Assembly (NCBI RefSeq): GCF_003334785.1
Contig: NZ_QOWV01000002.1
Strand: one strand, 5' to 3'
DNA: 64,000 nt
From: Escherichia coli
Lineage (GTDB): Bacteria; Pseudomonadota; Gammaproteobacteria; Enterobacterales; Enterobacteriaceae
In this document: positions 26,410 to 30,814 of the stretch, in pieces
How the letters are laid out: every line of letters begins with the position of its first letter
How positions within the stretch are numbered: position 1 is the stretch's first letter
Made by a program: the position numbers and the translations under genes
The notes under the pieces: generated by a model
What the model was told of the DNA's origin: nothing
What the model saw: the letters and a program-made list of their open reading frames with translations, nothing else
Database searches by the model: none

Positions 26410-27549
26410 ATGGTTTTGCAATCCACGCGCTGGTTGGCGCTCGGCTATTTCACATACTTTTTTAGTTACGGCATTTTTCTACCTTTCTGGAGCGTCTGGC
26501 TTAAAGGGATTGGTTTAACGCCAGAAACCATCGGCCTGTTATTGGGGGCAGGTCTGGTTGCCCGTTTCCTCGGGAGTTTGCTCATCGCGCCCCGCGTCAG
26601 CGATCCTTCCCGCCTGATTTCCGCCTTGCGCGTGCTGGCACTGCTGACACTTCTCTTTGCTGTCGCCTTCTGGGCGGGGGCGCACGTAGCGTGGCTGATG
26701 CTGGTGATGATTGGCTTTAACCTCTTTTTCTCACCACTGGTACCGTTGACCGATGCACTGGCGAATACGTGGCAAAAGCAGTTCCCGCTTGATTACGGCA
26801 AAGTGCGACTGTGGGGCTCGGTGGCGTTTGTCATTGGCTCGGCGCTGACGGGCAAACTGGTCACTATGTTTGATTATCGGGTGATCCTCGCGCTGTTGAC
26901 GTTGGGCGTGGCATCCATGCTGCTCGGCTTTCTCATCCGTCCGACGATTCAGCCACAAGGGGCAAGTCGCCAGCAGGAGAGCACCGGTTGGTCTGCGTGG
27001 TTGGCGCTGGTTCGCCAGAACTGGCGCTTTCTGGCCTGCGTTTGTTTATTGCAGGGGGCACATGCGGCCTATTACGGTTTTAGCGCCATTTACTGGCAGG
27101 CAGCTGGCTACTCGGCCTCGGCGGTGGGGTATTTGTGGTCGCTGGGCGTGGTGGCGGAAGTCATTATCTTTGCGCTGAGTAATAAACTTTTCCGCCGTTG
27201 TAGTGCACGCGATATGCTGTTGATCTCGGCGATTTGCGGCGTAGTGCGCTGGGGCATTATGGGAGCAACTACGGCGTTGCCGTGGTTGATAGTGGTGCAA
27301 ATTCTGCATTGCGGCACCTTCACGGTCTGCCACCTGGCCGCCATGCGTTATATTGCTGCTCGCCAGGGTAGCGAAGTCATCCGTTTACAGGCGGTTTACT
27401 CTGCCGTCGCGATGGGCGGCAGTATCGCTATCATGACCGTTTTCGCCGGTTTCCTGTATCAATATCTGGGCCACGGCGTGTTCTGGGTAATGGCGCTGGT
27501 GGCGCTTCCGGCAATGTTTTTGCGCCCGAAAGTTGTTCCCTCATGCTGA
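26410..27549 (+). CDS. hcaT: MFS transporter (putative 3-phenylpropionate permease)
   Basis: 379-aa 12-TM hydrophobic ORF. Confidence 0.9.
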   Translation: MVLQSTRWLALGYFTYFFSYGIFLPFWSVWLKGIGLTPETIGLLLGAGLVARFLGSLLIAPRVSDPSRLISALRVLALLTLLFAVAFWAGAHVAWLMLVMIGFNLFFSPLVPLTDALANTWQKQFPLDYGKVRLWGSVAFVIGSALTGKLVTMFDYRVILALLTLGVASMLLGFLIRPTIQPQGASRQQESTGWSAWLALVRQNWRFLACVCLLQGAHAAYYGFSAIYWQAAGYSASAVGYLWSLGVVAEVIIFALSNKLFRRCSARDMLLISAICGVVRWGIMGATTALPWLIVVQILHCGTFTVCHLAAMRYIAARQGSEVIRLQAVYSAVAMGGSIAIMTVFAGFLYQYLGHGVFWVMALVALPAMFLRPKVVPSC

Positions 27550-28821
27550 TTCGAGCATTTTGCGGATCTGCTCCTGTTGATGTGTTGTCAGCGTCAGGTC
27601 CGTATAGATCAGCGGTGGTGAAAAGAGCGGTAATGGCATGGTATAAGGCGCAATAATCAGTGCCGCGCCACGCGGAGCGCCTGTCTGCAAAAATGCCTTT
27701 ACCGACATATGCTTAATGTTGAGCGGCAGTAACGTTAGTTCGCGTAACTGCTGCTCAATCTGCGCTTCTCGCTCGCTATCATTCCCGGTAAGAAGAATAA
27801 TCTGTTTTTCATGCAGATCGTTTTCCTGCATTAGCCAGGCACCGAAAATCACCGCGACCAGACCACTTTCCTCATCAGAAAGATGGACGCCGTATTCACT
27901 TTCAAATCCGGCCAGCGCCGCGCGGGTGGTGCGCACCAGGCGTGGGTACAGTCTGGCGAACTCTTCCGGCAGGGTATTATCAATACCGATGGCAAACAAA
28001 CTGCGATTTAACGCCTGGGCGAGGTGGGTATAAAGCTGATCACATAACCCCTGTTCATCATAAAAACGAACATTTCCCAGCTCACGAAAATGGTTTACCA
28101 GACGTTTGATAGACTGACGCAATTGTCTGTCCCGCTGATGCGCATCCCGCAATGGATCGGGAACCCGCAACATGGAAAAAAGTAGTGCCATAAACAGTGG
28201 CTCATCAGGTGGTACAGGCTGGAGCGCCCGACGCTGCCAGTGGCGTCCAATTTCCTGCGCTACCTGAAATTCAAGGCAGGATTCCGCCCAGCGACGTTGG
28301 AGCGGATTAAACTGAGGCGTAATTCCAGCGTGGTGCTGCAGCAAACAATATTGCAGATACAGACACAGGAAATGAATATCGCGCGATTCAAAGCGTTTTT
28401 GCAGCCGTCGGGAGCAGAGATTCACTAACGCTTGTAGATTGGTATCGTCGTAAAAGTTACGCGCAATTCCGCGCCGCTTCAGTTCACTCTTCAGGGCGGG
28501 GGTGAATTGGCTGGTAATAAATGACGGACACAGACGGAAACCACGTCGTAGCCAGTGAAATAAACACAAACGTTGGTTAAGCACTGTACCTTCAACCCGG
28601 TAGCTACCGTCATAACCAGTCGTCAGTGTGAGTTGATGATAGCGCAGGATCTCCCGTCCTGTTTCGCTGATATCAAGACTGGCAATATCATCATCCACAC
28701 CATTAAGCTCGCTGAAGGTTGCCATGGTGGCGGTCAACCCCGGCTGAAAGAGCGTCAGCAAGATCTGGCAGCGGCGCTGGGGAGCCGAAAGGACAGATGG
28801 TGGAGCAAGCGTAGGCATCAT
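27541..28821 (-). CDS. csiE: Stationary-phase-inducible protein CsiE (PRD-domain protein)
   Basis: ORF 27541..28842 (-); start trimmed to MMPTLAPP (426 aa); 3' end overlaps hcaT by 9 bp. Confidence 0.88.
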   Translation of the reverse strand: MMPTLAPPSVLSAPQRRCQILLTLFQPGLTATMATFSELNGVDDDIASLDISETGREILRYHQLTLTTGYDGSYRVEGTVLNQRLCLFHWLRRGFRLCPSFITSQFTPALKSELKRRGIARNFYDDTNLQALVNLCSRRLQKRFESRDIHFLCLYLQYCLLQHHAGITPQFNPLQRRWAESCLEFQVAQEIGRHWQRRALQPVPPDEPLFMALLFSMLRVPDPLRDAHQRDRQLRQSIKRLVNHFRELGNVRFYDEQGLCDQLYTHLAQALNRSLFAIGIDNTLPEEFARLYPRLVRTTRAALAGFESEYGVHLSDEESGLVAVIFGAWLMQENDLHEKQIILLTGNDSEREAQIEQQLRELTLLPLNIKHMSVKAFLQTGAPRGAALIIAPYTMPLPLFSPPLIYTDLTLTTHQQEQIRKMLESA

Positions 28822-29011
28822 CTGTAGATCTCCCATAAGCATAATTGATAAGAATAGCTAAAGTTTGCTCAAGGAAATGGCGAAGGGAATGCTAATCATC
28901 AGAAATGTTGGCAAGCGTCACAGAATTTTTCACATCTTAAACTGTTCTGACCAGTGGATTAGCATGTCTTAAGGTGGTTTTGTGAATGATTATCGTGCTA
29001 GCGATCATGGG

Positions 29012-29866
29012 TTAGTTCTGCGGATTCAACGCGCTAAGGATAAAGTCCACCATCTGTTCGCGATAAACATCGCCGTGACGATCGGAAAAAGCATCAATGT
29101 GTTCGCCATCCGGGATTAGGATCAACCGTTTTGGCTCTTTTGCCAGGCTATACAACTTTTCGCTGTGCTGCCATGGGATAACGTGATCAGCTTTACCGTG
29201 AATGAGTAAAAGCGGGATCGGGCTGACGCTGGCGATATAATTTTCGCCGCTGTAACTCTCATCAAGTAAGTAGCCACTGCCGGGGATCATCTGGTTGGCG
29301 ATGGTTGCATAAGAGGCAAATGTGGAGTCGAGGATCACCGCACGTATGCCTTCACGATCACCCCGACCAATAACATCCAGAATATTCGCCCCGCCAATAC
29401 TCTGCCCGAACAGCACCAGACGTTGTGGGTTTACATCACTGCGATGGCGCACCACATTGATGGCACTTTGCGTATCGTCCAGCAATCCGGCCTGGGACGG
29501 CGTGCCTTTTGATTTACCAAACCCGCGATAATCAAACATAAAAACGTTGAAATTACGCTCGGGTAACCAACTGACCAGCGGCCAGTGGGCGGACATATTT
29601 CCGGCATTGCCGTGAGCATGAATGATGGTTGCGATGGCGTTGTCAGCAGGGCCCGTCGAAGAAGGGATAAACCAGCCTTGCAGACGAGTACCGTCCTTAG
29701 CCGTAAATTCGACGGATTCCGCCGACCAGGGATCGGGACCGTAAATTTTATCGTCGGGATAATAGAAGAAGTTGATGGCAACGCGCGGCACTAAATAAAC
29801 GCAGAAGGCAACAACAAAGAGAATAAACAGAATTTTGGGAACGCGTTTGTTCACTGGCAGTGCCAT
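29012..29866 (-). CDS. yfhR: Alpha/beta-hydrolase (peptidase S9-like) with N-terminal membrane anchor
   Basis: ORF 29012..29893 (-); second ATG (MALPVNK) has the strong SD aggaaagg, giving 284 aa; GxSxG motif GQSIGG. Confidence 0.85.
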   Translation of the reverse strand: MALPVNKRVPKILFILFVVAFCVYLVPRVAINFFYYPDDKIYGPDPWSAESVEFTAKDGTRLQGWFIPSSTGPADNAIATIIHAHGNAGNMSAHWPLVSWLPERNFNVFMFDYRGFGKSKGTPSQAGLLDDTQSAINVVRHRSDVNPQRLVLFGQSIGGANILDVIGRGDREGIRAVILDSTFASYATIANQMIPGSGYLLDESYSGENYIASVSPIPLLLIHGKADHVIPWQHSEKLYSLAKEPKRLILIPDGEHIDAFSDRHGDVYREQMVDFILSALNPQN

Positions 29867-30010
29867 AACCTTTCCTTGCGACTTCTTTATCATCCATTAA
29901 TCGGGGAAAGATGGTGGGAGAGTGACGAAAGAAAGTAAAGCAGTGAGGAAGTATTTCGGAATAGCGCCTGAAAGGCGAGGGCGGGTGAGTGATATCACCC
30001 GCCTGAGTCA

Positions 30011-30814
30011 TTAACGCTTCAGAGCGTCGCTTAACTCGTCACGCATGTTCGCCAGCATGGCTTTAACAACGCGCGGGTTACCAGCAACGATGTTACCGGT
30101 CAGCATGTAGTTATGACCACCGGTGAAGTCGCTGACGATGCCGCCCGCTTCACGAACCAGCAGCTCGCCTGCGGCGAAGTCCCACGGGCGCAGACCGATT
30201 TCAAAGAAACCGTCAACACGACCCGCAGCGACGTAAGCCAGATCCAGCGCCGCAGAACCGGTACGACGGAAGTCTGCACATTCGTTGAACAGTTTGCCGA
30301 CGATGTTGATGTAGGTAGTGGCGTACTGTTTTGCTTTGAACGGGAAGCCGGTCGCCAGAATAGTACCGTCGAGATCGCGAGCGGTGCTGCCGCGCAGTCG
30401 GTAGCCGTTCAGCTGTGCGCCCTGACCGCGAGTGGCGGTGAACAGTTCGTTACGCATAGGATCGTATACCACAGCAACTTCGGTGCGGCCTTTGATACGA
30501 ACAGCGATAGATACCGCGAAGTGCGGCAGACGTTTGATAAAGTTGGTAGTGCCATCCAGTGGATCGATAACCCATTGAACATCCTGATCAGTACCTTCAA
30601 GTTCACCGCTTTCTTCGGTGATGATGGTGTGCTGTGGGTAAGATTTACGAATCGTGTCGATAATCACCGCTTCGGCAGCTTTATCTACGTTGGTCACGAA
30701 ATCGTTACTGCCTTTCTGGCTCGCTTCTACAGCGTCCGGGGTTTCATAGTTTTTGGCAATTAAATTACCCGCCTTGCGCGCTGCGCGCACGGCGATGTTC
30801 AGCATCGGATGCAT
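30011..30814 (-). CDS. suhB: Inositol monophosphatase / NusA-associated SuhB
   Basis: 267-aa ORF with IMPase motifs (WVIDPLDGT). Confidence 0.96.
   Translation of the reverse strand: MHPMLNIAVRAARKAGNLIAKNYETPDAVEASQKGSNDFVTNVDKAAEAVIIDTIRKSYPQHTIITEESGELEGTDQDVQWVIDPLDGTTNFIKRLPHFAVSIAVRIKGRTEVAVVYDPMRNELFTATRGQGAQLNGYRLRGSTARDLDGTILATGFPFKAKQYATTYINIVGKLFNECADFRRTGSAALDLAYVAAGRVDGFFEIGLRPWDFAAGELLVREAGGIVSDFTGGHNYMLTGNIVAGNPRVVKAMLANMRDELSDALKR

Follow-up and report, generated by a model that had tools for sequence, protein, structure and literature searches.

The yfhR locus

The window, a stretch of 64,000 nucleotides of Escherichia coli DNA, carries on its minus strand a gene that RefSeq labels yfhR 'alpha/beta hydrolase' (WP_001297705.1). 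Its product agrees residue for residue with the UniProt entry YFHR_ECOLI, 'Uncharacterized protein YfhR'. The gene is already annotated at the same coordinates and with the same general class in every database, and as matters stand it joins the many E. coli y-genes that have a clear fold but lack an assigned substrate. It is flanked by suhB and csiE, the latter being the downstream gene, and the hca phenylpropionate catabolism genes lie near it. The original prediction had identified the gene as yfhR, given it these coordinates and named csiE as its neighbor, all of which coincides with the RefSeq annotation. The features of the locus are collected in Table 1.

Table 1. Features of the yfhR locus, in positions of the window
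Feature	Position	Strand	Basis or remark
yfhR CDS	29012..29866	-	284 codons plus stop; ORF list, RefSeq
Codon of His256, predicted catalytic base	29099..29101	-	at least 90% conserved; aligns with ABHD13 His298
Codon of Asp227, predicted catalytic acid	29186..29188	-	at least 90% conserved; aligns with ABHD13 Asp268
Nucleophile elbow G154-Q-S156-I-G158	29393..29407	-	Ser156 codon at 29399-29401
F34-Y35-Y36-P37, F-Y-x-P motif between anchor and catalytic domain	29756..29767	-	alignment
N-terminal transmembrane anchor, residues 12-32	29771..29833	-	Kyte-Doolittle, AlphaFold2 helix
Shine-Dalgarno AAGGAAAGG	29869..29877	-	read from sequence; kept in L005 and L006
In-frame ATG farther upstream, where the longest ORF begins	29891..29893	-	probably unused
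Two tandem GC-rich hairpins	29951..30004	.	RNA fold of the intergenic region

Two starts compete for this gene. The longest open reading frame spans 29012 to 29893 on the minus strand and would encode 293 residues. Its ATG has CCCCGATTAATGG just 5' of it, which holds no purine-rich motif or Shine-Dalgarno. The shorter frame has AAGGAAAGG 2 nt 5' of its ATG (29864-29866), with the AGGA core 6 nt away. We compared both sites with two other Escherichia species-level genomes, here called L005 and L006. The shorter frame's ATG and its Shine-Dalgarno are conserved in both, the upstream ATG reads ATT in both, and in L006 an in-frame TAA separates the position of the upstream ATG from the shorter start. 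The comparison suggests that translation probably begins at the ATG at 29866, not at the upstream one. This is also the start used by RefSeq, and the one that had been preferred for its strong Shine-Dalgarno over a longest-ORF start with none; that preference stands on both counts.

The hairpins closely follow the stop codon of suhB and lie 85-140 nt ahead of the start of yfhR; no U-run comes after them. Scans of positions 28700-30200 found no sigma-70-like promoter and no canonical terminator. It is possible that yfhR is transcribed by read-through from suhB. On the plus strand there is a match to the Rfam P26 family, below threshold.

Fold and catalytic residues

Sequence and model both predict that YfhR is a serine hydrolase of the alpha/beta-hydrolase fold. 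Pfam matches it to Hydrolase_4 (E 1.7e-12) and Abhydrolase_1 (E 1.7e-10), and the AlphaFold2 model (pLDDT 96.2, pTM 0.92) has strands and helices in alternation. Foldseek returned 1827 matches in the PDB at E <= 0.001, the best 50 listed being alpha/beta-fold hydrolases throughout, and the best 50 fold matches in AFDB50 are all uncharacterised bacterial proteins. The putative triad of S156, D227 and H256 is conserved in at least 90% of 106 family representatives, as are the HGN and DYRG motifs and, within the elbow, each of G154, Q155, S156 and G158. A 17-sequence alignment has the triad invariant and in the canonical Ser-Asp-His order. The fold and the nucleophile elbow had both been claimed at the outset, and we recover them as a confident model, the Hydrolase_4 match and GQSIG at residues 154-158. 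The lid, at about residues 183-215, is short and of no marked hydrophobicity.

Carboxylesterases and monoacylglycerol lipases are among the PDB neighbors of YfhR, as is a lipase caught with a monoacylglycerol intermediate. The closest solved structures have Foldseek E values of 1e-15 to 1e-17 and TM scores of about 0.65-0.70. Among them the Pyrococcus furiosus esterase Pf2001 (5g59) matches the YfhR family by profile with E 9e-32. It shares the YfhR fold and a small lid with the Thermoanaerobacter lipase TTL (7q4j) and with bacterial and human monoacylglycerol lipases, and all of these hydrolyze carboxyl esters with medium or long acyl chains. They are 15-23% identical to YfhR but soluble, lacking both its anchor and its F-Y-x-P motif. 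The curated families come no closer. No NCBIfam equivalog matches YfhR, the best model being that of Serratia UilS (NF047920) with E 4.7e-17 and 62.6 bits against a cutoff of 400. The searchable literature gave us no functional, enzymatic, genetic or localisation study of the protein. The function had been called uncharacterised, which is a fair description of a protein with no equivalog, no functional paper that we could find and a closest solved structure at most 23% identical.

The membrane anchor

YfhR has a single hydrophobic segment. Kyte-Doolittle windows of 19 residues exceed 1.6 solely at starts 5-17, with a peak of 2.55 over residues 12-31, and AlphaFold2 makes residues 5-32 one helix, which upholds the N-terminal anchor that had been predicted. 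Three positive charges (K7, R8, K11) precede the anchor and three negative ones (D38, D39, D44) follow it. Because this distribution fits the positive-inside rule, YfhR in E. coli should be oriented N-in/C-out; that the anchor is retained is likewise a prediction. Pfam, hydrophobicity, conservation and AlphaFold2 all agree with the reading of YfhR as a membrane-anchored alpha/beta hydrolase.

Behind the anchor stands the F-Y-x-P motif, which aligns with LYFP of human ABHD13. Its P37 is at least 90% conserved among the 106 sequences, and F34 and P37 are both invariant in the 17-sequence alignment. The distance of this motif from the N-terminal signal is informative in the wider family. A lipobox-like motif (a signal peptide that closes with [LVI][ASTVI][GAS]-C) is found in 72 of the 106 representatives, and in 66 of those 72 its Cys precedes the conserved Pro by exactly 7 or 8 residues. 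Because most members carry a lipobox whose Cys is held at this fixed distance from F-Y-x-P, the catalytic domain is likely to be extracytoplasmic and to lie against the membrane. A further 26 of the 106, among them all the enterics, lack a lipobox but are hydrophobic at the N-terminus. At the lipobox site the other enteric orthologues read IAVC, VVVC, LLIC or LGYC. As far as these sequences tell, the lipoprotein signal is ancestral in the family, and the enterobacteria have exchanged the lipobox for a predicted uncleaved anchor.

We also considered YfhR itself as a lipoprotein processed by Lgt and LspA and rejected the idea. The pattern is unmet in YfhR, which reads V-A-F-C22 with Phe at -1. 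Cys22, the sole cysteine, lies inside the anchor. As a separate observation, an OxICAT phagocytosis paper includes a Keio delta-yfhR strain, and two of its supplementary files contain no YfhR entry that might show a Cys22 peptide.

Kinship with ABHD13

By sequence comparison ABHD13 is the closest characterised relative of YfhR. The human protein (ABHDD_HUMAN, sequence verified) is 29% identical to YfhR over 265 residues (E 5e-28, 97 bits), and hhalign gives a probability of 100% with E 7e-42. The family profile scores 192 bits on ABHD13, matching positions 7-285 of 288, as against 118 bits on ABHD12 (sequence verified) and 113 bits on the best PDB chain. ABHD13 outscores ABHD12 for 153 of 156 family members. 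ABHD13 and ABHD12 match each other with only 74 bits, and BLASTP of YfhR against ABHD12 gives 70 bits in an alignment of only about 190 residues. For ABHD17A, whose sequence as used is unmatched in the collection, the values are 79 bits with YfhR and 126 bits with the family profile, a lead that we do not count as evidence. Both ABHD12 and ABHD17 are more distant from YfhR than ABHD13 is. They share with YfhR the motifs HGNA, DY(R/S)G-G-S-G-PSE and HG/HA-x-D-x-V. ABHD17 enzymes are protein depalmitoylases; ABHD12, the lysophosphatidylserine lipase, spans the membrane once and has lysolipids as its substrates.

The resemblance to ABHD13 extends to its design. Both proteins have an N-terminal membrane helix followed by an F/L-Y-x-P motif (FFYYP in YfhR, LLYFP in ABHD13), and YfhR shares with ABHD13/BEM46 the motifs HGNAGN, DYRG(Y/F)GKS-G, G-x-S-x-GG, (H/S)G-x-x-D-x-x-I-P and DG-x-H. 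ABHD13 depalmitoylates NLRP3 by means of S193/D268/H298 (PMC12134225), and it is with these three residues that S156/D227/H256 of YfhR align. The esterase 5g59 is the closest solved template for ABHD13 (bioRxiv 10.64898/2026.05.12.724499), as it is for YfhR. There are differences too. YfhR has GQSIG at the nucleophile where ABHD13 has GRSLG, and NLRP3 is a cytosolic S-acylated protein, whereas the catalytic domain of the bacterial family is extracytoplasmic and mostly that of a lipoprotein. We know of no established substrate class in the periplasm comparable to the one on which ABHD13 acts.

It has been said that the ABHD13/BEM46 subfamily of the Hydrolase_4 proteins, whose BEM46 is fungal, is without bacterial homologues (PMC13116537). 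The pairwise and profile scores between YfhR and ABHD13 would appear to contradict that statement. If the link is true, it corrects a claim in the literature on the origin of the family and offers a genetically tractable bacterial relative for a eukaryotic enzyme whose range of substrates is uncertain.

Neighborhoods and domain fusions

We surveyed the neighborhoods of YfhR-family genes in 80 genomes, found by means of the 17-sequence alignment. No partner gene is common to the family in these genomes. The top recurrent neighbors occur at no more than 8 of the 80 loci, and they are mostly housekeeping genes or lineage-specific synteny. A TIGR03790 protein stands beside the homologue in the Kiritimatiellales only, an HcaT-like MFS transporter in the enterics and one Oxalobacter, and the hca neighborhood is not conserved outside the enterics. 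The gene contexts of two homologues (P0116 and P0110) have nothing in common.

One neighbor recurs across great distances. A gene with an Lnb_N/DUF4105 domain (E 9.5e-61) adjoins the YfhR homologue in 4 of the 80 genomes, which belong to 3 phyla, and in 3 of these 4 cases the two genes are co-directional and abutting. In Bacteroides the lipoprotein N-acyltransferase family is DUF4105 (PMC12994826). No such neighbor accompanies yfhR in E. coli. Domain fusions tell a similar story: one YfhR homologue is fused to a ceramidase domain (PF05875) on 3 contigs from 2 independent assemblies, and another to an Exo_endo_phos (EEP) domain. Two further extended homologues (P0146 and P0235) have no extra domain in a Pfam scan, and nine long homologues gave only generic hydrolase matches in NCBIfam. 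Taken together, the fusions and the Lnb_N adjacency speak for substrates of a lipid or acyl kind, though the homologues that supply this evidence are few and distant.

A proposed acyl hydrolase on the periplasmic face of the inner membrane

We believe the better part of this evidence favors an acyl hydrolase, and we put the chance of this somewhat above even. YfhR would be a single-pass inner-membrane enzyme, kin to ABHD13/BEM46, ABHD17 and ABHD12, that works at the periplasmic face on a membrane-embedded substrate. It would be the enterobacterial form of a large bacterial hydrolase family that consists mostly of lipoproteins. The compact hydrolase domain, with its Ser156-Asp227-His256, begins at the end of the transmembrane helix and would rest against the membrane on its periplasmic side. 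Most likely Ser156 attacks a fatty-acyl oxy-ester or thio-ester of a substrate embedded in the membrane, with a free fatty acid and a deacylated molecule as the products. That the substrate is an ester and not a peptide is our inference; its identity is a guess, the candidates being a lysophospholipid, a monoacyl-glycerolipid, an acylated (lipo)protein or an acyl-enzyme intermediate. If the acyl-hydrolase reading is true, it adds a step to envelope lipid homeostasis, beside LplT/Aas, TesA and PldA. To our knowledge E. coli has no known periplasm-facing inner-membrane hydrolase for lysophospholipids or for the acyl groups of lipoproteins.

The overall design proposed here has a precedent. PlaF of Pseudomonas aeruginosa is an inner-membrane phospholipase A1 with one N-terminal helix and a periplasmic catalytic domain, and it acts on membrane glycerophospholipids. 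The analogy is a functional one only. PlaF is absent among the best 60 PDB profile matches, so any relationship to YfhR is distant.

Several points may weigh against an acyl hydrolase. The similarity to ABHD13 is just 29%, the nucleophile motifs differ, and the family has no conserved operon. The substrate specificity of alpha/beta hydrolases changes readily.

A more specific version of the proposal is one that we hold only tentatively and would not ourselves bet on. YfhR may represent, in E. coli, a widespread bacterial clade that corresponds among prokaryotes to ABHD13/BEM46 and is possibly its ancestor, and may serve as a periplasmic-face deacylase in an envelope acyl cycle. The clade could clear the lysophospholipid by-products of lipoprotein N-acyltransferases such as Lnt or Lnb, or alternatively could take off acyl groups, ester- or thioester-linked, to which enzymes of the Lnt/Lnb type give rise. 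Such a role would fit the tether, the abutting Lnb_N neighbors in three phyla and the fusions to lipid hydrolase domains. If so, E. coli would offer a workable model for the little-understood ABHD13 class.

Other functions

YfhR could instead be a periplasmic esterase or lactonase for small molecules (acyl-homoserine lactones, or feruloyl, acetyl and xenobiotic esters) whose anchor merely retains the enzyme. A small soluble ester would also fit the lid, which is short and not markedly hydrophobic. The PDB neighbors include feruloyl esterases, acetyl-xylan esterases, PET46 and MHETase, the hca genes are close by, and UilS is the best NCBIfam match. However, that match covers residues 76-189 only and falls far below its cutoff, on which ground we do not count YfhR as a UilS acyl-homoserine lactonase, and UilS is reported to be cytoplasmic (PMC11633161). 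The hca neighborhood is confined to the enterics, and the nearest characterised relatives are hydrolases of acyl proteins and lysolipids. The spacer of 7-8 residues in 66 of the 72 lipoprotein homologues would be hard to explain if position at the membrane were irrelevant. We regard a small-molecule esterase as rather unlikely.

A serine peptidase of the MEROPS S9/S33 type, which would trim periplasmic or membrane-proximal peptides, seems improbable to us. The idea has some history, with 'peptidase' among the database names and 'putative peptidase' in older annotations; the Hydrolase_4 family is itself named 'serine aminopeptidase S33', and the distant PDB matches include DPP4 and an S9 carboxypeptidase. 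However, the match to Pfam Peptidase_S9 (E 1.2e-6) is weaker than those to the generic hydrolase families, and the proline iminopeptidase models of NCBIfam reach 21.5-27.8 bits against cutoffs of 168-500. The protein has 284 residues, its domain starts at about residue 33, and its sole insertion is the lid of some 30 residues, leaving no propeller or cap to gate peptides. With neither a beta-propeller nor a large helical cap, and with scores below the curated thresholds, YfhR does not belong to S9 or S33. Its closest characterised relatives are esterases and thioesterases.

Conservation of the gene

Complete E. coli genomes contain the yfhR region without exception (5426 of 5426), and the gene has a dN/dS of 0.04-0.06 at a dS of 0.4-0.7. 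At E<1e-30 the family comprises 406 cluster representatives. This is a real, functional gene under purifying selection. That it is dispensable, decaying or barely expressed, with no important role in the laboratory or the host, is very improbable: the upstream scan found no sigma-70-like promoter, the searchable literature yielded no yfhR phenotype, the alleles of Shigella flexneri and S. sonnei are frameshifted or truncated, and some E. coli have a 22-residue in-frame deletion in the lid, but against this stand the strong selection, the presence of the gene in every complete genome, the conserved Shine-Dalgarno and the catalytic residues kept across phyla. Gene loss is typical of the general genome decay of Shigella, which the broken alleles fit. 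The yfhR transcript has also been detected, 2-fold up, in EHEC on ground beef with microbiota (PMC5543532).

Gene identity, start codon and expression

The gene order around yfhR is that of the E. coli chromosome: hcaT, csiE, yfhR, suhB, trmJ, iscR. All 5426 complete E. coli genomes contain the 1.4 kb around the gene, and several match it at 100% identity. The original prediction had delimited the gene exactly as RefSeq does, and the translation matches UniProt YFHR_ECOLI ("Uncharacterized protein YfhR") residue for residue. yfhR is therefore a gene already annotated, an orphan enzyme. Nearby, hcaT (26410-27549, +) and csiE (27541-28821, -) are convergent and their 3' ends overlap by 9 bp (27541-27549). 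RefSeq starts csiE at 28821; the ATG of its longest ORF is at 28842.

Features of yfhR and of cassette-type loci in other genomes
Feature	Sequence	Position	Strand	Remark
yfhR CDS	window	29012-29866	-	RefSeq "yfhR: alpha/beta hydrolase", WP_001297705.1
Cys22 codon	window	29801-29803	-	only cysteine of YfhR, middle of transmembrane anchor
Cassette-type locus	L045	5286-7924		
Cassette-type locus	L077	5063-7977		
Cassette-type locus	L083	5241-7844		
Cassette-type locus	L081	4392-5729		

The preference for the ATG at 29866 over that of the longest ORF is settled by two other Escherichia species-level genomes, L005 and L006. AAGGAAAGG and then TT directly precede this ATG, and inspection of the sequence before the longest-ORF ATG at 29893 found no purine-rich motif. 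Both genomes keep the Shine-Dalgarno sequence and the 29866 ATG, and both replace the upstream ATG with ATT; in L006 an in-frame TAA additionally separates the two candidate starts.

In enterics yfhR lies downstream of suhB in the same orientation. Two tandem GC-rich hairpins without a U-run follow the suhB stop codon (29951-30004), and a promoter scan upstream of yfhR did not find a sigma-70-like promoter, so transcription by read-through from suhB is possible. On the strand opposite suhB and yfhR (29951-30004, +) the same two hairpins match Rfam RF00630, "Pseudomonas sRNA P26", but at 32.4 bits (E 4.6e-4 over 3.7 kb) the match stays below the gathering score of 36. This match may merely reflect terminator-like hairpins beside suhB.

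A catalytic domain close to the membrane

Both what was originally observed in the sequence and how it was interpreted were correct. The proposed N-terminal anchor is the single strongly hydrophobic segment in the 284 residues of YfhR (Kyte-Doolittle maximum 2.55 at residues 12-31, all other windows at most 1.6), and the nucleophile elbow GQSIG lies at residues 154-158. Among 1.84 billion cluster representatives, 406 are related at E<1e-30, and the number rises to 9785 at E<1e-10. When 106 representatives are aligned, the triad of S156, D227 and H256 is at least 90% conserved at each position, as are H85-G86-N87, D112-Y113-R114-G115, Q155 and P37. The AlphaFold2 model built from this alignment (pLDDT 96.2, pTM 0.92) has a helix at 5-32, which leads into a compact alpha/beta domain whose lid, at about 183-215, is short.

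Judging by their N-termini, most relatives of YfhR are lipoproteins: in 72 of the 106 a hydrophobic signal sequence closes with a lipobox-like [GASN]-C. Another 26, every enterobacterial one among them, start with a hydrophobic stretch but show no lipobox. The remaining 8 have no such stretch, perhaps because of truncated gene calling. Since the N-termini of these 106 sequences are mostly lipoprotein-type or hydrophobic, the catalytic domain is probably extracytoplasmic throughout the family. In 66 of 72 cases the lipobox cysteine precedes the conserved proline of F-Y-x-P by exactly 7 or 8 residues, so this very short, fixed-length spacer would hold the domain against the membrane.

Enterics have R-V or similar where the lipobox has G-C, and judging from the alignment the Enterobacteria probably swapped the lipid anchor for an uncleaved signal anchor. 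YfhR itself has K7, R8 and K11 before the helix and D38, D39 and D44 after it, a distribution that agrees with the positive-inside rule if its domain is extracytoplasmic, the topology we infer for E. coli.

We considered and rejected YfhR as a lipoprotein, for the context of Cys22, V-A-F-C, is no lipobox. Cys22 is kept, outside any lipobox, in all enterobacterial orthologues examined (AFC, AVC, VVC, LIC, GYC), and several lipoprotein homologues have a second cysteine about 8 residues before that of the lipobox. The residue following the lipobox cysteine is mostly V, A, S or T, rarely D. The E. coli sorting rule would direct such non-D lipoproteins to the outer membrane; these rules vary between phyla.

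Kinship with ABHD13

Among solved structures the nearest (15-23% identity, TM about 0.65-0.7) are carboxylesterases, feruloyl and acetyl esterases, monoacylglycerol lipases and a lipase from a thermophile solved with a monoacylglycerol intermediate. The motif pattern of YfhR suggested the human protein-deacylase ABHD13 and the related acyl hydrolases ABHD12 and ABHD17, so we took up this group for comparison. The ABHD13 query matches ABHDD_HUMAN exactly and the ABHD12 query was likewise confirmed; the ABHD17A query gave no exact database match, and its scores are a lead only. Between the F-Y-x-P motif and the C-terminus, a stretch of 265 residues, YfhR shares 29% identity with ABHD13 (E 5e-28; hhalign probability 100%, E 7e-42). 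Under the settings of the PDB search (same profile, same database size), the family profile scores ABHD13 at 192 bits over positions 7-285 of 288, anchor included, ABHD12 at 118 and the best PDB chain at 113. Scored pairwise, ABHD13 gives 97 bits with YfhR and only 74 bits with ABHD12, its human paralogue. Of the 156 bacterial family members, 153 favour ABHD13 over ABHD12 by score, at identities of up to 36%; the top one lies on a contig from a MAG that is gene-dense and of prokaryotic type in its gene content. PANTHER, we presume, already places YfhR among ABHD13-like proteins.

ABHD13 reportedly depalmitoylates NLRP3 via S193/D268/H298 (PMC12134225), residues that align with S156/D227/H256 of YfhR. 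According to a 2026 paper, earlier phylogenetic work found no homologues of the ABHD13 subfamily in bacteria, and the paper infers a eukaryotic origin (PMC13116537). Our comparisons of the YfhR family appear to contradict this claimed absence.

Neighbours and fusions

All-against-all clustering of flanking ORFs from 80 genomes (Proteobacteria, Verrucomicrobiota/Kiritimatiellota, Planctomycetota, Nitrospirota, Desulfobacterota, Bacteroidota) gave no partner gene common to the whole family. We believe the scattered associations are informative and point to lipids. One homologue is fused at its N-terminus to an alkaline-ceramidase domain (PF05875), in a gene read on 3 contigs that belong to two independent assemblies. 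Another has a C-terminal Exo_endo_phos domain, whose superfamily includes sphingomyelinases. An Lnb_N/DUF4105 gene (Pfam E 9.5e-61) adjoins the homologue in 4 of the 80 genomes (Methylomirabilota, Lentisphaerota and two Nitrospirota), co-directional and abutting in 3 of them. DUF4105 is a permuted NlpC/P60 acyltransferase family whose Bacteroides member Lnb is a lipoprotein N-acyltransferase (PMC12994826). A genome carries about one such domain, so by a rough estimate 4 adjacencies in 80 genomes are far above chance.

After the ceramidase fusion comes a Sulfatase/Phosphodiest-family gene with faint EF-hand matches (L085/L086, 5690-7251); this superfamily also includes lipid phosphoethanolamine and glycerophosphate transferases. 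In Methylomirabilota and Nitrospirota one or two small paralogous ORFs of about 160-250 aa, for which we found no family match, precede the yfhR-like gene. At 3 of 4 such loci the small ORFs are followed by a protein of about 650 aa with Lnb_N, DUF7843 and DUF7840 domains. Together these genes resemble a conserved cassette of three or four members.

Proposed function and alternatives

Our best reading is that YfhR would be a Ser-Asp-His hydrolase that lies flat against the inner membrane on its periplasmic side, where it would take an acyl group off a membrane-embedded substrate. Of this picture the analysis shows the fold, the triad, the purifying selection, the membrane tether and the kinship. 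Our guess for the substrate is either a lipid of the lysophospholipid type or a protein or intermediate that carries an acyl group. Lipoprotein ancestry, kinship with ABHD13 and the lipid-pointing associations sharpen this hypothesis and make it testable; they leave yfhR an unsurprising gene.

A weaker reading is that YfhR acts on small molecules, as an esterase or lactonase that its anchor simply keeps at the membrane. The best NCBIfam model is the acyl-homoserine lactonase UilS, where YfhR scores 62.6 bits and the cutoff is 400, and no NCBIfam model reaches its cutoff. An S9/S33-type peptidase is also weaker: Pfam gives Hydrolase_4 (E 1.7e-12) and Abhydrolase_1 (1.7e-10), with Peptidase_S9 behind at 1.2e-6, and the substrate is probably an ester, not a peptide.

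That yfhR is a gene of no consequence is likewise weaker; it is under strong purifying selection, since dN/dS among the Escherichia lineages compared for the start codon is 0.04-0.06 (dS 0.40-0.68). Variant alleles do occur among the proteins compared (P0007, P0065, P0092, P0064). P0007, found in some E. coli on 65 contigs, has an in-frame 22-residue deletion (IANQMIPGSGYLLDESYSGENY) that takes away most of the lid. Shigella flexneri alleles have a frameshift after Asp227 and lose the catalytic histidine, and S. sonnei forms are N-terminally truncated or internally deleted.
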